The notes beneath the pieces were generated by a model. That model searched no databases, was not told the origin of the DNA, and saw only the letters and a program-made list of their open reading frames with translations. From a virus (Duplodnaviria > Heunggongvirae > Uroviricota > Caudoviricetes), in IMG/VR virus record IMGVR_UViG_2579778573_000005: 44,005 nucleotides of DNA. One strand, written 5' to 3'. Made by a program: the position numbers and the translations under genes. Positions within the stretch are counted from its first letter, which is position 1. Each line of letters starts with the position of its first letter. Below are positions 3,903-43,305 of the stretch, piece after piece.

Positions 3903-4415
3903 TTAATATACATGGAGAATACGAGCAACGCCCGCAAGAACGTCAACACCATTAATTACTCGTTTCATTTTTGCAGGATGAATCTCGTAAATAATTTTTC
4001 CATTTTGAACTCGTTTATAATAGCTCGGCGCAATCGTTACTGATTGCCCAACTGCTGATTTTGAATCAGTCCCCTGCGCGTCATCAGTAATCGCCGTAAT
4101 AAGCCCCTCATATGTATCAATACGTTCAAAATTGACACCGTAATTGTCAGTATATGCACTTCGAATTTCGAACCTTGTTTTAGCACCTGGTATTAATCCC
4201 AAATACCCCATCACACCAGAATCGGAGCCAGAGACTTTAAAACTGGCTGACATTTTCTCCATTCCCCCGTCCAGAGTGATAGCTGTATCCATAGCGCCCG
4301 TCTTAAAATCATCTTCGATTATTTTCATATCGACGGGAGTGTATTCAGTGCAATTTAAAACTCGTTCTCCCTGGACGAACAACGCAAATGCACGATAGGT
4401 GTTACTATCTGCCAT
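3903..4415 (-). CDS. Tail tube protein (P2 FII-like)
   Basis: Track ORF 170 aa directly after the sheath gene. Confidence 0.6.
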   Translation of the reverse strand: MADSNTYRAFALFVQGERVLNCTEYTPVDMKIIEDDFKTGAMDTAITLDGGMEKMSASFKVSGSDSGVMGYLGLIPGAKTRFEIRSAYTDNYGVNFERIDTYEGLITAITDDAQGTDSKSAVGQSVTIAPSYYKRVQNGKIIYEIHPAKMKRVINGVDVLAGVARILHVY

Positions 4416-4432
4416 ATCAATTCTCCAGATTA

Positions 4433-5935
4433 TTAGACTGTTTCTTTAAAAAGAGAGGCCAGAGCTTCAACTGTGTAATCATTATTAATGCGGTACATTA
4501 ACGTAATTGTTTGTGCCGGGGATTTCGGTCCAAAGTCAACATTAATATAAAGATTACCAGCGGCCAGACTTTCTTTTGTATTTAACTCTTCATCTAACCA
4601 CGCCCGTCCTCCGTTAATCGCGCCCTGCTCCTCTAATTTATGCAGATACGCGTTTATCGACTCTACAACGTCTGTTCCGAGGTGCAGGTCTATCGGGCGA
4701 TCAATAAAATCGGTCATCATTGCCCGGGCTATTGAATCCTCAATTACGTCAGCTGTCCGACGAACGCATTCAAAGGACCATTGGGGACTGAGGCTACACA
4801 GATAGTTACCCCAGTGTCTGAATCCATCATAGCGAATAATTGTGCTGACCTGGCTGGCGTTCAGCAGATTTGCTGTGCAGTTCGTTTCACCGATTATAAA
4901 ATCATCGACTTGTTCGAGTCCTGTAATTCCGTAGATATTTTGATTCGATTTGCTCCACCAAAACCCTTTTTCGTTATCAATTCTGGCTCGTAAACCAGCA
5001 GCGATAGCTGAATACGGACGAGATAAACCACTAACATCACTCGTAGAATAAACACGAGGGCGCAGAATTTCCATTCTGCCGCCGTACCTCTGACGACGAT
5101 TTACAACGTCAGCAGGCGTAGCGCCTCGCGGTGAATCGATATATCCAACGCCTCGTAATTTATTTGTCACCACTTCAAGTTGTTCTGCAATATAATCGTT
5201 AGCACTATAATCTGGAGCGATTAAAATTCTCGGCGTTACTTGATTTATTTGCGCAGACGTCAACAATGCGTTAATCCCGTTAACGACGTTCTGCCGCATT
5301 TTTGTTTCGTCGCTGTCCTCTTCGACGCGGACAACAACAATAATGGCATCCTCCTGATTTAGTATTTCAGATACAGCGGGAGGAAGGGTTCCAGACCCAC
5401 CGAGCAATCCAGCTTTTTTTTGACTGCCTGCAATTAACGTCGGAACATTATATTTGAACGATTCGTCTTTACCACCGGATAAATTTGTTGGGGGGAGCGC
5501 GAATACAGTCCCCGTTCCTGCGTGATCACCACCGAATGTGACGTTAATATATTCTCCAATCTGGAGTCCTTCTTTATACTGCTGGTTCTGATCGTACATT
5601 TTTGACGGGGTCATGGCACCGTCCGTGATCATTGTTAATTTTCTCGAACCGTCGGGCAGTGTGCTGTATCCTGGAGTTGCTACATTCCCGTTAATTCCCA
5701 AATCAACAATTTCAACAATCCAGTTGTTTCCGTCGGCCCCTGGCATGACAGTCGAAAACTCAACAAGATTGTCTGCGAGCTCTGATCCCCATAATAGTGA
5801 TGCACAAGTTGGGTAGCTGGAATCGGGAGCAGTACCAACAATCCCAATCACGGAAATATCTACTGTGTTGATCTCTTTTGTGCCGTCGTCGTATTCGAGC
5901 GTGCGAATACCGTGTAAAAAATTAGTTACGCTCAT
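4433..5935 (-). CDS. Contractile tail sheath protein (P2 FI-like)
   Basis: Track ORF 500 aa; N-terminal region resembles P2 FI sheath. Confidence 0.8.
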   Translation of the reverse strand: MSVTNFLHGIRTLEYDDGTKEINTVDISVIGIVGTAPDSSYPTCASLLWGSELADNLVEFSTVMPGADGNNWIVEIVDLGINGNVATPGYSTLPDGSRKLTMITDGAMTPSKMYDQNQQYKEGLQIGEYINVTFGGDHAGTGTVFALPPTNLSGGKDESFKYNVPTLIAGSQKKAGLLGGSGTLPPAVSEILNQEDAIIVVVRVEEDSDETKMRQNVVNGINALLTSAQINQVTPRILIAPDYSANDYIAEQLEVVTNKLRGVGYIDSPRGATPADVVNRRQRYGGRMEILRPRVYSTSDVSGLSRPYSAIAAGLRARIDNEKGFWWSKSNQNIYGITGLEQVDDFIIGETNCTANLLNASQVSTIIRYDGFRHWGNYLCSLSPQWSFECVRRTADVIEDSIARAMMTDFIDRPIDLHLGTDVVESINAYLHKLEEQGAINGGRAWLDEELNTKESLAAGNLYINVDFGPKSPAQTITLMYRINNDYTVEALASLFKETV

Positions 5936-6321
5936 TTTATTCCTTCTCTATTTTCACCAATTCGCGTCGCTATTGCTTCTTTAAGCTCGGCCAAATTTTC
6001 GATTTGCGCGTCAGATGCGGTTCCGGCATCTACTGCACACTGAATTGAGAATGCCTCAATTGACAGATCGCCAACAGTCCGTAATGTAGTCTGGAGTTTT
6101 TGCGTCTGCTCTTTTTTTACAAATTTAGAAATGCTCCCATAATCCCCGCTCAGCGCTCTTTCATATAAAACCCTACCGTGTTCCTCGCAATCATTTTTCA
6201 TTGCGGTGAATGGAATGTCGTTTCCAATCCCGTCAATATCGCAAATAATATTTATAGATAACCCATGCTCGTCATTAAAAACAGGGTTTGTTATTTTTCT
6301 AAATGAATCAACGCTTATCAT
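5932..6321 (-). CDS. Putative tail fiber assembly protein (positional)
   Basis: Track ORF 129 aa immediately downstream of the tail fiber gene, overlapping stop/start. Confidence 0.35.
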   Translation of the reverse strand: MISVDSFRKITNPVFNDEHGLSINIICDIDGIGNDIPFTAMKNDCEEHGRVLYERALSGDYGSISKFVKKEQTQKLQTTLRTVGDLSIEAFSIQCAVDAGTASDAQIENLAELKEAIATRIGENREGIK

Positions 6322-23052: not shown

Positions 23053-23232
23053 TTACGCGTCAGGGGGTGTAATAGTATATCCAGCTATTTCTGCCAACTC
23101 GAGAAACGCCATCAGGCTGGCAATCCGCTCATCATCGGTCAGAACACGCACACCAACGATGTGTCCGTCCTTACGCTTGATAACAGCCCGGCATGTTTCC
23201 GGTAGTTCGCCTATAGATTCTTGAATATTCAT
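23053..23232 (-). CDS. Small protein under a LexA box (candidate SOS-inducible antirepressor)
   Basis: 59 codons from ATG 23232 (track ORF extends to a TTG at 23253); G-rich RBS; LexA box 20 bp upstream. Confidence 0.45.
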   Translation of the reverse strand: MNIQESIGELPETCRAVIKRKDGHIVGVRVLTDDERIASLMAFLELAEIAGYTITPPDA

Positions 23233-23252: not shown

Positions 23253-23272
23253 ACCTGTATATTTATACAGTA
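23253..23272. promoter_or_regulatory. LexA (SOS) box
   Basis: ACCTGTATATTTATACAGTA = CTGT-N8-ACAG with AT-rich spacer, near-perfect match to the enterobacterial consensus. Confidence 0.65.
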
Positions 23273-23383
23273 TTTTATGGCATTTGTCATAACGCCAAAT
23301 ACAATGAGGGAATAATGAACAATTATATTCACGTCGTGAATTTTATTAAACGGTTTTATAGGGGATTAAACCGTTTATGGTCA

Positions 23384-24826: not shown

Positions 24827-24900
24827 TTTTACAGGAATGTGGTACGGAACATGCTGTCTATATTTCAACCAATAATCGTAATGCAGTAACTGGAGGAGCT

Positions 24901-30704: not shown

Positions 30705-31541
30705 TCAAAATGCTGAATTAGCAACGGATATAGCCGACTTTTTCCCCATTACCATCAATTTATCCAGTGTCATACTTCGCAGATTGTCGCTGTGGATCAC
30801 CAGATACCCTGCCCGCTCAGCGATCTCTTTGAAAGCGTCAAAGGTCATCAGATGTTCGCCTTTGGCAACATGGCGCATCCCGGTCACTTTTCCATTTTTG
30901 ATAGTGGTGATAAAAGAAAAATCTGGAATGGTTGGGTGATTTTCATCGAGTAGCAGGCAGTGGATGTATTCAATCGCCTCTAACATTTGCGTCTGTGACA
31001 GTTGTTCTATGTGAGAGACGGCGAAGCGTTGATGAATCATGGTGTAGGCATCGGGATACATCATGCCTTTCTTGCCGACCAGTATATTAACGGCATCACG
31101 CAAGGGAGTACGGTCATCGGTAGTTGTACTCCGCCTCTCTGGACGCTGGCTAAAATAACAATCTTCCAGCTTTTCGAAAACTTCCCAGGCCTGTTCTGTT
31201 TCCAGCATTTTGGCATGGCGAGCTGCGCCGCGTTCTGTCCAGAGAATGAGGGATCGGGTATGTTTAGCAACTGACTGACTATCTGTCAGTCTGTTTTTGA
31301 AGTCGCGTAATTCATTACCTTCCAGCTTAAAAAAATGCTTTCCTACGACAAATCTGGCGATGTTGCGCTTGAAGTTTTGCTGGATACCATTTACTTCCGT
31401 GCCATACAAACTGGCAAGCAATTCAGTAGTGATGACGGGAAGTTGGTTATGATGTAGCGGAGAAAGGGATTCCGCAGATATTTGGACTGTCATCGCAGTG
31501 GCCTCACTTAGTGTTTTTTTCATCACCACCAGCGACGCCAA
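30705..31541 (-). CDS. Phage antirepressor-like protein (ORF6N-type N-terminal domain)
   Basis: Track ORF 278 aa; start uncertain (internal ATGs at ~31523 and ~31493). Confidence 0.45.
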   Translation of the reverse strand: MASLVVMKKTLSEATAMTVQISAESLSPLHHNQLPVITTELLASLYGTEVNGIQQNFKRNIARFVVGKHFFKLEGNELRDFKNRLTDSQSVAKHTRSLILWTERGAARHAKMLETEQAWEVFEKLEDCYFSQRPERRSTTTDDRTPLRDAVNILVGKKGMMYPDAYTMIHQRFAVSHIEQLSQTQMLEAIEYIHCLLLDENHPTIPDFSFITTIKNGKVTGMRHVAKGEHLMTFDAFKEIAERAGYLVIHSDNLRSMTLDKLMVMGKKSAISVANSAF

Positions 31542-31765
31542 TCATCTGGTGGTGAGCTGTGCAGGGTTGGCGTAACCGGCTAAGTGAACCCGGCGCTTCC
31601 ACAGAAGCCCCCACACAGCCCACCATAATGCGAATGTGGCCGTGCCTAACACATAAAAAAACCGCTAACGCGGCTATGCGTCACTTAGATATCCGGGACG
31701 CCAATCCCGGCAACCGATTTTGCGGCTGCGCGGAAACTATAGCCCCGGACTTTTTCTAAGTCAAT

Positions 31766-33352: not shown

Positions 33353-33390
33353 TGGTCTTTCCTCGGTTATTTCACGCTGGTCAGGCGTGG

Positions 33391-35811: not shown

Positions 35812-36288
35812 TCATGCATGGTGGTCTTGCGCAGTGCGTATCACTGCTCCTCGCGTCGCTACCAGCGCCGCTATTGCTTCGTCAATTTCCTGAATAGTTA
35901 ACTCTGGCGCGAAGTGGAGATGTACAGCGTTAATCGCTTCCACCCCTTCTTTTGCCGCCAGCGTTGCCAGCAAAACGGGATCGCCCGGCGACTCCAGACG
36001 TGCCCGCCGTTCTGCGGGTAGCACGGCTTTCATCACACTGGCCAGCACCTGAGTTTTTCGGCGCGCCGCCGTTGTCTCGCCACGTAACCAGCGAAAGATT
36101 TTCTGCCGATTGTTGTTGATGGCTCTCCAGTCCACGTTGCCGTCCGCGTCCTCAAATTCATGTAGTCTCAACTCATCATTGCGTCCCTGACTGAACCAGG
36201 CCCGGCAGATTTCAATCGTGACGAGTTCCTGCCCTGCCCTTGCCGCCCAGGTCAAAATCTCTTTTTGTAATTCCTCTTGGTTTTCCAT
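35812..36288 (-). CDS. Putative CII-like lysogeny regulator
   Basis: Track ORF 158 aa immediately downstream of cro. Confidence 0.4.
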   Translation of the reverse strand: MENQEELQKEILTWAARAGQELVTIEICRAWFSQGRNDELRLHEFEDADGNVDWRAINNNRQKIFRWLRGETTAARRKTQVLASVMKAVLPAERRARLESPGDPVLLATLAAKEGVEAINAVHLHFAPELTIQEIDEAIAALVATRGAVIRTAQDHHA

Positions 36289-36346
36289 AGCGTCTCCTGT
36301 CGCTAAAAATTGATTACGCTTAATCAGATTTGGGGCTCACCAACAG

Positions 36347-36577
36347 TTAAGCTGCTTCCGTTTTAGGCAAGCTGTCATCTGGGTTTGGGTAAAGATCCGG
36401 TCTAAGATCATGAGGGGTCACGCGCCATTCAAGAGCTTCAGATGTGCGCAAAACCTCTTCACCGGGAACCCGTCCTTTGAACCAGAGGCTTACCGTTTGT
36501 GGTTTTTTCCCTAATCGCCGCCCTAACTCGGATTGACTCATTACGGAAAGAATTTTGTCTTGCAGTTGTTTATCCAT
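36347..36577 (-). CDS. cro: Cro-like HTH repressor
   Basis: 76 codons from ATG 36577 with AAGGAG RBS (track ORF extends to a TTG at 36613); HTH QSELGRRLGKKPQTVSLW; divergent from the repressor gene. Confidence 0.6.
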   Translation of the reverse strand: MDKQLQDKILSVMSQSELGRRLGKKPQTVSLWFKGRVPGEEVLRTSEALEWRVTPHDLRPDLYPNPDDSLPKTEAA

Positions 36578-36602
36578 ATGGACTCCTTGTGTCCGCGTCA
36601 TC

Positions 36603-36642
36603 ATTACAAACAATAACTGTAATTACAAATTATATTTGCAAT
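36603..36642. promoter_or_regulatory. Rightward operator region: two overlapping ATTACA-N9-TG(T/C)AAT sites plus pR -10
   Basis: ATTACAAACAATAACTGTAAT (36603-36623) and ATTACAAATTATATTTGCAAT (36622-36642); minus-strand TATAAT at 36629-36634. Confidence 0.5.
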
Positions 36643-36675
36643 GCTCCCTACAATTAAACCTTGTATCCTTACGGT

Positions 36676-37089
36676 ATGAACACAAAAACGAAAAACATGG
36701 CTTTTGCTAGCCGACTACAACGGATTCTAAAAGACTTAGGCTGGTCTCAATCTGAGTTAGCTCGCCATATTGGGGTTACGGCTCAATCAGTTCAGGCATG
36801 GTGTAATGGGGTAACTCCAAGAAAAGATAAATTAGACAAGCTAGCAAAAGTGACCGGATACCCTGTTCATTTTTTCTTCATGAATGAAGGGGAATATTTG
36901 GATGAATCCACACTACACCCGGGTAATTACAATCAAGAACTAACCCCGCAAGAACAGGCTCTACTGCAACTATTCAGAGGACTGCCTGAGAGCGAAAAAA
37001 ATAAATTAATCAATGAGCTAAAAGAAAAAAGAGAGCACTTCGATCTACTGCTAAAAGAACTACTTGAAGCCAAAAACCAGACAAAATAG
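36676..37089 (+). CDS. Prophage repressor (CI-like, HTH only, no S24 peptidase domain)
   Basis: Track ORF starts at TTG 36661; first ATG 36676; HTH WSQSELARHIGVTAQSVQAW. Confidence 0.65.
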   Translation: MNTKTKNMAFASRLQRILKDLGWSQSELARHIGVTAQSVQAWCNGVTPRKDKLDKLAKVTGYPVHFFFMNEGEYLDESTLHPGNYNQELTPQEQALLQLFRGLPESEKNKLINELKEKREHFDLLLKELLEAKNQTK

Positions 37090-37207
37090 TTCAGTTCAAA
37101 TTTCCAGGCCAGCCGCTGCTGGCATGCAACTTTCCCCTAACACAAAAACACCTTTACACAGTGAATATTTTTTTGCCCCTCACTACAAATTATTTTTTAA
37201 AAACACA

Positions 37208-37236
37208 TTGACCATTACAAATACAAATTGTAAAGT
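37208..37236 (+). promoter_or_regulatory. Candidate early-left promoter pL with embedded operator
   Basis: TTGACC-17-TAAAGT; the 17-bp spacer is an ATTACA-N9-TGTAAA site (37214-37234). Confidence 0.5.
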
Positions 37237-37804
37237 CACTTTCATCAACAACGCTTACCCAGCGGCAGTTGTTCAGAAACACGTTCTGACAGCCGGAAAG
37301 ACGGCACCAAATTTTGCGCGTCGGCGCCAACACGGTGACAGAGGGAAAGACTTCACCGGCATATGGCACATGTGTCGAAGCGGTCTGGATGGAAGCGGAG
37401 CCTTAACGCGTTGTCTCCATAGCAGGTAGCCGGAATGTGCAAGCCACAGCCAGGTATGAGCGATTGATTCACCATCAAGGCGATACGGTGTGACCACCAG
37501 GGAAGAGTCCTGGCTACAACACGAGAGCGCACTTCATCGACTCAACTTTGAGCTTTGTCGTTAAATTTTGAAATGGCGGAGTGCGCTCCCGGTTGTGGTG
37601 AACAGGTGTTTAACGGGAACTCCCTGCCCGTTACCCGGTTCGATTCCGGGCGCCCATCATCAATTTGCTGTGTTTAGTCTTTGCCCAGTCCGCACGATGG
37701 GCCATTTTTTCACACAGCCAGGTTTTATCGCTGTGCCTGAGTCCCCAACAGGAGAGGCCAAACCCGCAGCGTGACACCAGGGAAAGACCGGAGGAAGTAC
37801 CACG

Positions 37805-37871
37805 CCTGACCAGCGTTGACCATGAGCCTGACCAGCTCAAAACAGGAAAGACCAGCCCGGGCCTGACCAGC
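37805..37871 (+). repeat. Three direct copies of CCTGACCAGC within ~70 bp
   Basis: Copies at about 37805, 37827 and 37862 in the ORF-poor leader. Confidence 0.5.
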
Positions 37872-38099
37872 CCTGTACGGTCGTAATGGAAACATAACGA
37901 CGCCGGAAACGTAACCGGCACCCTTTAGATAGCAAAAGACCCGCACAAGGCGGGCCAGTTACCCCGAACGGCGACCAAACCATTCGGATTTATCACAAGT
38001 GACCAAACTTGTGATGAGGAAAGACCAACGACACTGACGCTATGGAAGCTGATCAATATTCGCTGATCGGCTCTGAGTATACATTACCAAGGAGTCGCT

Positions 38100-38420
38100 A
38101 TGGAAGCGCGCACCATCCCAGTAACACTCTTTATTCATTATGCAACTTCAACTTTCAGCCACGAAAAGCTGCTTGTTGCGACTGTTGATATGTCAAAAAA
38201 TTTTCCAGACAGGTACATCCTTCTGGAAAGCCGCGAAATTGAAATTACCGTTAACCAGCCCGAGCCAATCGACATCATCGGTTTACAGGTCGAGCAACTG
38301 CGTGAACAAAAACAGAAAACAGTCGCCGACGCCCAACAGCGTATTGCTGCTATCGATGACAAAATCCAGCAGTTACTTTGCATCGAATACACGCCAGATA
38401 CCGATGAGCTCCCCTACTAA
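38100..38420 (+). CDS. Hypothetical early protein
   Basis: Track ORF 106 aa; AGGAG RBS. Confidence 0.45.
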   Translation: MEARTIPVTLFIHYATSTFSHEKLLVATVDMSKNFPDRYILLESREIEITVNQPEPIDIIGLQVEQLREQKQKTVADAQQRIAAIDDKIQQLLCIEYTPDTDELPY

Positions 38421-41464: not shown

Positions 41465-41689
41465 ATGCTGCGATGGCAACCGGGAGCAACTCTGCTCTCC
41501 GCATTTGATATCAAAATTGGTCGACTGTCGGCCAGCGTCAGGAAACAGACTTTGACCGAGTCTGATATTGCCCGTGCCTGCCAGAAGGCAGATGACGCAA
41601 TAAGCTACATAATGAGGAAAGACCATGAAAAGCGATCACGACATAATCACCAGAGAAGAAATGGTCGAGCTGACGGGAAGCCCACTTAA
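41465..41689 (+). CDS. Hypothetical small protein
   Basis: Track ORF 41435-41689; ATG 41465 with GGAGGA RBS; 3' end overlaps next gene. Confidence 0.3.
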   Translation: MLRWQPGATLLSAFDIKIGRLSASVRKQTLTESDIARACQKADDAISYIMRKDHEKRSRHNHQRRNGRADGKPT

Positions 41690-41888: not shown

Positions 41889-42873
41889 CTGGATGCCGCC
41901 TCGTGTTTACCAGGGCAAAGCGGCCTACGAATTCAGGAATAAAGATAACAAAGCGATACGCCTGTGCGCATTGGATGCACCACGATCAGCCGTATGGCTG
42001 GCATATGAAAAAGCGGTCGGTGACGAAAAAGAAAGAAATACTTTTCAGGCGCTCACGGAACAATTCATGACCTCCCCTGATTTTATGGATTTGGCAGTCG
42101 AAACCCGGAAAGACTACACAAAATATTCCGGAAAAGTTCTGCCTGTCTTCGGGAAGATCGACCCGGATAAAATCAAACCTGAACATATTCGGCGCTATAT
42201 GGATCAACGCGGTTTATCAAGCCGAACTCAGGCAAACAGGGAAAAAAGCTTTATGTCCCGGGTATTCCGTTGGGGTTATGAACGAGGTTATGTTCAGAGG
42301 AATCCTTGTCAGGGAGTTAAACAGTTTAAAGAGAAAGCTCGCGAACGTTATATTACGGATGAAGAATATCAGGCCGTTTATGAAGTGTCTCCTGATGTTG
42401 TTCGCGTAGCAATGGAGATTGCCTACTTATGCGTGGCCAGACAGAGTGATGTACTTTCATTGCAGAAAGACCAGCTGTTCGATTCCGGGATCTACATTCG
42501 TCAGGGAAAAACCGGCGTTAAGCAAATCAAAGCCTGGTCGCCTCGTCTGCAGAAAGCGATAGCTCTGGCTCGTTCTCTGCCATTAAAAACGGGAATCAGT
42601 AGCCTGTTTGTGATTCATCAAACTACCGGTGGCAAGTATACCCGTGATGGTTTTAACTCTCGTTGGCGTGATGTCAAAGCGGCAGCACAGGAAAAATATC
42701 CTCATCTGCAAATAGACTTCACATTTCATGATCTGAAAGCAAAAGGTATCTCTGATCTGGAAGGCAGCCTGGAAGAGAAGCAAGCAATTTCCGGGCATAA
42801 GAACCCGCGACAGACAGCAGCATATGACCGGAAAGTTAAAGTAGTGCCCGTAGTTGGTGGCCAGAGAAAATGA
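41857..42873 (+). CDS. int: Tyrosine integrase
   Basis: Track ORF 41827-42873; likely start ATG 41857; ends 130 bp from the tRNA-Leu 3' end. Confidence 0.8.
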   Translation: MAGKRKNPADNWMPPRVYQGKAAYEFRNKDNKAIRLCALDAPRSAVWLAYEKAVGDEKERNTFQALTEQFMTSPDFMDLAVETRKDYTKYSGKVLPVFGKIDPDKIKPEHIRRYMDQRGLSSRTQANREKSFMSRVFRWGYERGYVQRNPCQGVKQFKEKARERYITDEEYQAVYEVSPDVVRVAMEIAYLCVARQSDVLSLQKDQLFDSGIYIRQGKTGVKQIKAWSPRLQKAIALARSLPLKTGISSLFVIHQTTGGKYTRDGFNSRWRDVKAAAQEKYPHLQIDFTFHDLKAKGISDLEGSLEEKQAISGHKNPRQTAAYDRKVKVVPVVGGQRK

Positions 42874-43003: not shown

Positions 43004-43090
43004 TGGTACCCGGAGCGGGACTTGAACCCGCACAGCGCGAACGCCGAGGGATTTTAAATCCCTTGTGTCTACCGATTCCACCATCCGGGC
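43004..43090 (-). tRNA. leuZ: tRNA-Leu (anticodon UAA)
   Basis: 87-nt reverse complement reads GCCCGGATGGTGGAATCGGTAGACACAAGGGATTTAAAATCCC...CCA with long variable arm. Confidence 0.9.
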
Positions 43091-43102
43091 TCGGGAAAAA
43101 AG

Positions 43103-43176
43103 TGGAGGCGCGTTCCGGAGTCGAACCGGACTAGACGGATTTGCAATCCGCTACATAACCGCTTTGTTAACGCGCC
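43103..43176 (-). tRNA. cysT: tRNA-Cys (anticodon GCA)
   Basis: 74-nt reverse complement reads GGCGCGTTAACAAAGCGG...GATTGCAAATC...TCCA. Confidence 0.9.
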
Positions 43177-43229
43177 AAATTCTTCAGGCCTTTCAGCCAG
43201 ACATCCGCTGACGCCGATGCCTTTTAAAC

Positions 43230-43305
<76 letters not shown>

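Follow-up and report, generated by a model that had tools for sequence, protein, structure and literature searches.

The immunity region of an integrated lambdoid prophage was analysed in the 44,005-bp stretch of DNA deposited as IMG/VR virus record IMGVR_UViG_2579778573_000005, called the window from here on. Host tRNA genes for Leu, Cys and Gly were located by ARAGORN at 43004-43305 with the integrase gene adjoining, and the prophage is integrated beside leuZ-cysT-glyW. Open reading frames (ORFs) and Pfam matches gave a leftward gene order of YdaS (the Cro analogue), YdaT (the CII analogue), an O-like protein and DnaB helicase, and a rightward HTH_3 protein, the putative immunity repressor; the repressor gene and cro are divergently transcribed, and the cII analogue and the replication genes lie downstream of cro. 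Between these two genes and at a PL-like promoter downstream of the repressor gene, we found five palindromic sites that are probably the oR and oL operators of the immunity switch. The positions of all features are collected in Table 1.

Operator-like sites in the immunity region

An earlier note on this DNA had described three ATTACA-N9-TGTAAT sites, two between cro and the repressor gene and one further downstream. Direct reading of the sequence found all three (sites a, b and e) where they had been placed, and they are the only matches with at most one mismatch in the window, against 0.08 expected; none of 100 dinucleotide shuffles attained three such matches, and with two mismatches there were just two further matches, which is the chance level. 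The number and the width of the sites had to be corrected, as two others, c and d, had been missed, and the outer two bases on each side of the proposed consensus vary around a conserved core. The exact pattern TACA-N9-TGTA has four matches in the window (0.5 expected), site c among them, and the predicted recognised unit is TACAA-N7-TTGTA, with five sites in all.

Moreover, a weight matrix was built solely from the sites of relatives (Salmonella, Serratia, Klebsiella and a metagenome; repressors 65-88% identical) and then run along the entire sequence of the window. The first four ranks went to sites b, a, e and c, with scores of 28.2, 23.0, 21.9 and 16.9 respectively; a score of 21.9 was reached in 0 of 500 whole-window shuffles, and one of 16.9 was attained by the best match in 15 of 500, or by 0.16% of local AT-matched shuffles. 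Site d, with a score of 12.0, is at chance level genome-wide (179/500 shuffles) and has P=0.013 against the local AT-matched null. Five matrix matches scoring at least 12 fall within 249 bp of regulatory DNA, where 0.013 would be expected. Matches at 6238 and 7040 fall within long ORFs and were taken as chance; another at 24862 is located 19 bp upstream of an ORF, yet its score is at chance level.

The three oR sites fall in the 98-bp repressor/cro intergenic region with their centres 19 and 25 bp apart, the two oL sites are 32 bp apart, and oR and oL are separated by ~590 bp. The coordinates of sites a and b do overlap, as had been proposed, but what they share is just the non-conserved outer AT, their cores being separated by 2 bp. 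The minus-strand TATAAT that had been seen under an oR site is present; read on the plus strand, site b has ATTATA at its centre (36629-36634). Likewise, the TTGACC/TAAAGT promoter with its 17-bp spacer is as described and is the only sigma-70-like site called by our scan in 36300-38150; it begins 119 bp past the stop codon of the repressor gene, one less than the 120 bp given before. Its spacer had been said to be exactly filled by the third site; site e does cover the 17 bp, but it also extends over the first 4 bp of the -10 hexamer. In relatives this promoter reads TTGAC(C/G)-17-TA(A/G)A(G/T)T.

Conservation of the sites in related prophages

A search for repressor homologues among 5.8 billion proteins returned a narrow family, with identities of 88% in Salmonella, 67-68% in Serratia and the metagenome, and 67% in Klebsiella; the gene order is shared by the loci of all these relatives. 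Wherever a relative has the same repressor, which is where the earlier note had asked for conservation, the position, spacing and half-sites are kept, the five palindromes being orthologous across lineages whose repressors are 65-88% identical, with spacings of 19, 25 and 32-33 bp. Within the core (positions 3-7 and 15-19), 4 of 50 orthologous columns vary (8%), against 14 of 35 (40%) for the centres and 9 of 20 (45%) for the outer flanks (Fisher P ~1e-4 versus the core); the outer bases read ACTACA...TGTAGA at oL in relatives and CCTACA...TGTATC at site c.

Each site keeps its own pattern. Site a has an orthologue in all five lineages, and the E. coli and viral-contig variants differ solely at its positions 9-10; the two E. 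coli copies that have diverged furthest (97.9% and 98.7% identity across 701 bp) likewise change the sites at these two positions only. Site b is fixed at 19 bp from site a in all lineages, and in the relatives of 65-68% identity it is the symmetric variant AATGCAAAT-N3-ATTTGCAAT. Site c is fixed at 25 bp from site b, its right half and the adjoining CCT being invariant in five lineages. For site d a CTACAAAT box is kept 32-33 bp upstream of site e in all relatives, and in site e the half-sites are invariant and the centre is freely variable, as seen in the oL alignment.

All the close relatives carry, between the repressor gene and oL, an additional gene of 157 aa and a strong terminator. As the window lacks both, oR and oL are here merely ~590 bp apart, compared with ~1,045 bp in relatives; at 37090-37181 the window has 92 bp unrelated to the sequence of the relatives there, with no clear terminator.

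The prophage type is common among E. coli ST131-type genomes. A 1.85-kb stretch around the sites was found in 474 of the 5,426 complete genomes of E. coli, with O25b:H4/ST131 strains frequent among the carriers, and the 701-bp immunity core was found in 437 genomes; carriage is ~8% of complete E. coli genomes, ST131 strains included. Megablast against 50,697 deposited phage genomes gave no DNA-level match to the locus, there being distant protein-level relatives only. A scan of genome contigs with the repressor alignment returned only the known Serratia locus and two irrelevant HTH matches. When viral contigs were scanned with the 14-mer AAACCTTGTATCCT, the matches were mainly due to chance and after filtering only identical copies of this prophage were left; a degenerate 19-mer pattern found near-identical copies, the Klebsiella type, and a distant AT-rich relative, L150, which retains the oR layout without a clean PL palindrome and was used as a lead only.

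Co-variation of operator and recognition helix

The helix-turn-helix (HTH) segment GVTAQSVQAW of the repressor is invariant in four close relatives, whose operators read TACAAAT..ATTTGTA. The CI protein of a more distant Klebsiella phage (39-42% identity) has the helix SPQAVQQW, and there TACAAG-N5-CTTGTA occurs three times in oR and twice at PL, sharing its outer core with the operators of the window. In Gifsy-2 the repressor GtgR (33-34% identity) has the helix SHTSVRKW, and an unrelated GAACYTTTRGTT palindrome (GAAC..GTT) is found at oR and oL. Both Gifsy-2 and the Klebsiella phage have their own palindrome in the PL spacer, with a second copy ~33 bp upstream. The recognition helices of the Cro proteins follow the same pattern as those of the repressors. 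The same helix is found with the same operator, and where the helix has changed, the palindrome has changed at oR and oL together; judged from sequence, such co-variation is classical for an immunity-specificity module and speaks against mere promoter elements.

The repressor and the candidate promoters of the switch

The repressor had been given as 142 aa long; however, that ORF begins at TTG, and the start conserved in all lineages is the ATG at 36676, which gives 137 aa. A second ATG at 36697, the start chosen by PGAP, is CTA in the Salmonella relative. Pfam returned HTH families only. The AF2 model (mean pLDDT 73) shows a five-helix HTH domain, with helices up to residue 68, and two C-terminal helices (91-100 and 105-136), joined by a linker of low confidence (75-89); there is no peptidase fold. 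The nearest solved relative is the N-terminal domain of the 434 repressor (E 6e-6), with 36% identity in the Foldseek alignment; Foldseek of the model against PDB gave generic HTH domains only and nothing informative on the C-terminal helices. By tblastn the repressor is 33.3% identical to the Gifsy-1/-2 repressors over 93% of the query (E 5e-11). With HTH matches alone in Pfam and a length of 137 aa, it does not have the form of a repressor with an S24 peptidase domain, a Ser-Lys dyad and an Ala-Gly cleavage site. By its sequence and predicted structure it is a member of the Gifsy-type class of small, non-cleavable repressors.

The candidate -10 of the repressor maintenance promoter, TATCCT, is invariant in five lineages, and the 6 nt that separate it from the ATG vary more than anything else in the region and include no Shine-Dalgarno; because of this arrangement and of the conserved ATG, the repressor mRNA is probably leaderless. 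The same geometry (-10, 6 nt, ATG) is also seen in the Klebsiella phage and in Gifsy-2, and leaderless starts have been shown for paaR2 of CP-933P and for lambda cI (PMC8630535). Counted from the predicted repressor start, the sites would be centred at ~-19 (c), ~-44 (b) and ~-63 (a).

On the other arm, the recognition-helix region of Cro, GK(K/R)PQT(V/I)SxWF, is conserved within its family, and the protein encoded next is of the YdaT type; in CP-933P, YdaT is a functional equivalent of CII (PMC9986795). The cro promoter has two candidates, and sites a and b would cover it under either one. A candidate YdaT site, TTGATTACGCTTAATCAG, is the sole match within one mismatch (it has one) in the window to TTGATT-N6-AATCAA, the YdaT motif (PMC9986795); its position is suggestive and the statistics alone are weak, since at least one such match was found in 23 of 100 shuffles.

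Interpretation of the sites and alternatives

Taken together, we read the sites as operators that serve the immunity switch in an integrated lambdoid prophage, five 17-bp sites of which three form oR and two oL, a reading to which we give a probability of about 80% from the sequence and from analogy to known switches. Dimers of the 137-aa repressor would bind the strongest sites, a and b, covering the leftward cro promoter region, and from site b the repressor may also stimulate its own weak, probably leaderless promoter. Site c, over the -10 of that promoter, could serve negative autoregulation or be the preferred target of Cro (YdaS). At the other end, site e in the PL spacer, aided by site d, would shut off the rightward early operon (leader RNA, exonuclease, xis/int). 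In the lytic state Cro would bind the same sites, its recognition helix being related to that of the repressor (PQT(V/I)S-W versus AQSVQ-W). Induction would come from an antirepressor, as in the Gifsy phages, with two candidates: the 59-aa gene behind a LexA box and Ant behind a C4 RNA.

Several points weigh against this reading. All its mechanistic steps are drawn from layout and analogy, and the overlap of the oR sites with promoters is itself a prediction. The short intergenic region is dense with promoter signals, so that part of the conservation could be promoter-driven, and both TGTAAT and ATTACA look much like a -10 hexamer. Across the genome site d scores no better than chance, and it has a degenerate right half. 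For the repressor promoter both the -35 and the -10 are poor, and L150 is an exception to the leaderless arrangement, its ATG being ~27 nt away from the -10. The cro promoter is not uniquely placed, both candidates failing the promoter scan. Finally, no similarity was detected between the 59-aa LexA-box protein and the Gifsy antirepressors, including GfoA and GftA.

A first alternative is that the sites are real operators of another protein, be it Cro/YdaS only, YdaT or a host factor, and that the repressor recognises another sequence. The Cro helix is equally conserved wherever the sites are, and comparative data alone cannot separate Cro from the repressor. Nevertheless, no further repeated motif common to oR and oL was found in these genomes, and a repressor without an operator at PL or PR would give no immunity; the HTH of the repressor is 434-like and the core ACAA...TTGT resembles 434 operators, while the YdaT motif TTGATT-N6-AATCAA differs from the sites, occurring once and elsewhere (36310-36327). 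In lambda, 434 and P22 the repressor and Cro share their sites. The same holds for the repressor and the Cro-type YdaS of CP-933P, where the exact sequences bound by PaaR2 and YdaS have so far not been resolved (PMC8630535). We consider this alternative unlikely.

The palindromes could also be mainly promoter architecture, that is, back-to-back -10-like hexamers in AT-rich, UP-like DNA that are conserved for RNA polymerase. TGTAAT agrees with TATAAT at 5 of 6 positions, and the sites overlap every candidate promoter element of a region that is 64% A+T; even so, the AT-matched local null still gives P <=0.013 per site. The same palindrome lies in the PL-like spacer, where RNA polymerase has little sequence preference, and the half-sites are conserved symmetrically with the centres and flanks drifting. 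The palindromes of the Klebsiella phage and Gifsy-2 (TACAAG..CTTGTA and GAAC..GTT) are unlike a -10 and co-vary at oR, oL and in the helix. We consider this second explanation very improbable. Lastly, the matches might be due to chance in non-coding DNA rich in A+T. Short palindromes of such composition are common and the weak site d is no better than chance genome-wide, but with three matches observed against 0.08 expected, the scores of three sites reached in 0 of 500 shuffles and the sites orthologous in four genera, we regard the idea as close to negligible.

Table 1. Features of the immunity region and of related loci (positions in the window unless a locus label of a relative, L-number, is given).
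Feature	Position	Strand	Description
oR site a	36603-36623		ATTACAAACAATAACTGTAAT, 0 mismatches to ATTACA-N9-TGTAAT; 17-bp core TACAAACAATAACTGTA at 36605-36621
oR site b	36622-36642		ATTACAAATTATATTTGCAAT, 1 mismatch (right half TGCAAT); core 36624-36640
oR site c	36647-36667		CCTACAATTAAACCTTGTATC, perfect TACAA-N7-TTGTA core; additional to the earlier three
oL site d (weak)	37182-37202		ACTACAAATTATTTTTTAAAA, left half good, right half degenerate; additional to the earlier three
oL site e	37214-37234		ATTACAAATACAAATTGTAAA, 1 mismatch (right half TGTAAA)
Repressor gene, 137 aa	36676-37089	+	HTH_3 domain, linker, C-terminal helices, no peptidase domain
Candidate -10 (TATCCT) of repressor maintenance promoter	36664-36669	+	Predicted; +1 would fall on the A of ATG 36676
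cro analogue, 76 aa, YdaS family	36347-36577	-	Pfam YdaS_toxin, E 7.7e-9
cro promoter, candidate 1	-10 TATAAT 36634-36629	-	Poor -35, inside site c
cro promoter, candidate 2	Extended -10 TGtAATGAT 36608-36600	-	-35 TTGTAA 36628-36623, site a in spacer
YdaT-type (CII-like) candidate site	36310-36327		TTGATTACGCTTAATCAG, between cro stop and ydaT start
cII analogue, 158 aa, YdaT family	35812-36288	-	Pfam YdaT_toxin, E 2e-15
PL-like promoter	37208-37236	+	TTGACC (37208-37213), 17 bp, TAAAGT (37231-37236)
Untranslated leader of PL-like transcript, ~860 nt	37243-38099	+	No annotated gene in 37090-38099
RprA-like leader elements in relatives	L008 ~4150-4205; L011 ~4150-4200; L005 ~4850-4915		
GGAAAGAC copies	Leader 37295, 37344, 37781, 37845, 38018; others 38441, 41616, 42107	+	
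GGAAAGAC copies	27723, 33355, 35775	-	
LexA box	23253-23273	-	CCTGTATATTTATACAGTA; perfect core CTGTATATTTATACAG at 23255-23270; 23 nt upstream of 59-aa ORF
59-aa ORF, phrog_340	23053-23232	-	nin-like region; candidate SOS-controlled mini-antirepressor
ORF6N/Ant antirepressor gene	30705-31493	-	Behind P1-type C4/isrK antisense RNA
P1 immI-like module	31545-31742	-	C4 antisense RNA, a1/b1 targets, isrK; Rfam 53-80 bits
157-aa gene in relatives	L002 3427-3900; L005 3410-3883; L008 3431-3904		No Pfam match; position of lambda rexAB

Candidates for induction

Because the repressor lacks an autocleavage domain, induction probably needs an antirepressor rather than self-cleavage, a prediction made from its sequence and from the Gifsy phages, whose non-cleavable 136-aa repressors bind the right operator and are stripped off by LexA-controlled antirepressors encoded outside the immunity region (PMC3121763). 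The perfect LexA core found upstream of the 59-aa ORF is of a pattern (exact CTGT-N8-ACAG) expected 0.57 times by chance, and the encoded protein resembles residues 199-236 of Ant, in its C-terminal part (37% over 38 aa, E 4e-7). The isrK/C4 RNA, which is known from Gifsy-1, is present in the window with Rfam scores of 75-80 bits; the C4-Ant module has its own promoter (TTGACT-17-TATAGT), and neither a LexA box nor a TACAA-N7-TTGTA operator site was found in it.

We also observed that the LexA-box protein is encoded with 100% identity in a deposited 27-kb record, ON470624.1 (Escherichia phage vB_EcoM-705R4), in which the immunity region is unmatched; this record could represent either part of the genome of such a prophage or a mosaic relative.

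The leader of the PL-like transcript and an RprA-like element

Within the long leader, positions 37602-37712 match the RprA family of Rfam with 37.4 bits (E 0.011), under the threshold of 70 bits, and in essentially all E. coli genomes the rprA gene of the chromosome is 84% identical to 37665-37714 (50 nt). A terminator-like hairpin at 37688-37702 is followed by a T run, placing the first intrinsic terminator of the leader at ~37688-37710. A block of 17 nt, TTGCTGTGT(G/T)TAGT(C/T)T, is invariant in rprA and in the prophage leaders of E. coli, Klebsiella and Serratia; the sequence of the terminator stem that follows differs in each of them, with its self-complementarity kept. The element is absent from the Salmonella relative.

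The matched segment corresponds to RprAproc, the processed form of the host sRNA RprA, which consists of its last 47 nt and is active alone (PMC9262595). A literature search found no paper on an RprA-like prophage RNA. It is conceivable, though we hold it doubtful, that an RprA 3' end borne by the leader is released from the PL transcript, in which case the immunity repressor would have direct control over a mimic or decoy of a host Hfq-dependent regulator; if true, loss of repression would rewire RprA-controlled host circuits ahead of lysis. From its sequence, this by-product of the analysis may be of more interest than the operators.

Other features were observed in the leader. The first ~50 nt of the PL transcript (37243-37300; CATCAACAAC...GTTGTTCAG...ACGTTC) fold as a hairpin whose conservation extends to Gifsy-2 and the Klebsiella phage (L015 2545-2600; L016 2505-2560), despite the differing operators and downstream genes of both; the hairpin may act as a nut- or put-like signal or in RNA stability. 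Ahead of the RprA-like block, a tRNA-like segment at 37560-37665 (+ strand; L002 ~4340-4432) comprises a stem-loop, CCCGG-TTCGATT-CCGGG and CGCCCATCA, and its first stem shows a compensatory change between the window and the Salmonella relative (ACGGG/CCCGT versus GCAGG/CCTGC). The T-arm-like GGTTCGATTCC at ~37640 was rejected as a tRNA, as there was no ARAGORN call and Rfam gave just a 19-bit tRNA-Sec match; the segment could be a structured RNA module or an old attachment-site relic.

Furthermore, GGAAAGAC occurs 11 times in the window (1.4 expected), always co-oriented with early transcription in both arms. The copies at 33355, 35775 and 38441 lie 2 nt before a start codon and resemble ribosome-binding sites, that at 41616 is 1 nt before the ATG of a DUF4224 gene, and that at 42107 is within the integrase gene. 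The five leader copies are also present in relatives, often as loops of GC hairpins (GCCGG-GAAAGA-CCGGC in relatives), and could be remnants of small genes since deleted, or a signal acting at the RNA level.

Significance and comparison with known switches

This type of system is thoroughly known and the arrangement is a textbook one. General understanding of such switches is unchanged, and the value of the analysis is for annotation and experimental design. The operator sequence and site map of this immunity group were not found in a literature search; the analysis gives an operator consensus, TACAA-N7-TTGTA, and a five-site map that define the immunity group of the prophage, predicts which related prophages in Salmonella, Klebsiella and Serratia would be homoimmune, and predicts induction driven by an antirepressor instead of repressor cleavage.

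The divergent gene layout, the intergenic copies of the dyad and the second operator cluster at a PL-like promoter are those of a lambdoid switch, and the oR/oL logic proposed in the earlier note is right for the operator layout; it does not extend to induction, which with a repressor devoid of the S24 autocleavage domain would not be lambda-like. As in lambda, the repressor gene and cro diverge, with three intergenic operators that appear to overlap both promoters, and a further cluster lies in the same orientation at PL, downstream of a repressor gene that is probably leaderless. The predicted site centres of ~-19, -44 and -63 are close to those of lambda OR3, OR2 and OR1, which are ~-19, ~-42 and ~-66 relative to PRM. 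However, the repressor here has 137 aa, the operator TACAA-N7-TTGTA is unrelated to the TATCACCGC... of lambda, oL has two detectable sites instead of three, oR and oL are ~0.6 kb rather than 2.4 kb apart, the CII analogue is YdaT, and no N-like gene is evident after PL.

In the 434 repressor, the nearest solved DNA-binding domain, the half-site core ACAA/TTGT is shared. The operators of 434 are ACAA-N6-TTGT, 14 bp long; the spacing here is one base longer (ACAA-N7-TTGT) and does not give a 14-bp operator. In addition, the first glutamine of the recognition helix of 434 is alanine here, and 434 has a cleavable C-terminal domain.

With regard to the repressor, the closest characterised full-length homologues are GfoR, GtgR and GfhR of Gifsy-1, -2 and -3 (PMC3121763), 33% identical over 93%. 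They are alike in their small size (~136 aa), in the HTH followed by C-terminal helices (LLxLF..PE.EK motif) and in having no cleavage domain, but they differ in recognition helix and operator sequence and the phages would therefore be heteroimmune; Gifsy-2 also differs in having a P22 C1-like protein, the CII analogue here being YdaT.

By gene content the module is of the same type as the PaaR2/YdaS/YdaT system of CP-933P from E. coli O157:H7, where an HTH repressor also faces ydaS-ydaT, and the window likewise has a YdaT-type TTGATT-N6-AATCA(G) site; in CP-933P, several oR repeats are bound by PaaR2 and YdaS, PL has similar operators and paaR2 is leaderless (PMC8630535). Unlike in the window, the operators of CP-933P are 18-bp palindromes of the GTTTAGTAA type, and PaaR2 heads a toxin-antitoxin operon, paaA2-parE2, which is absent here. 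The gene trio and its divergent arrangement are also those of RacR/YdaS/YdaT in Rac, itself a defective prophage; Lemire et al. placed RacR among the small non-cleavable repressors, and it was not among the homologues retrieved in our repressor searches. As judged from its sequence, then, the switch combines a lambda-like layout with the YdaS/YdaT gene content of CP-933P and Rac and a Gifsy-type repressor with a 434-like HTH.

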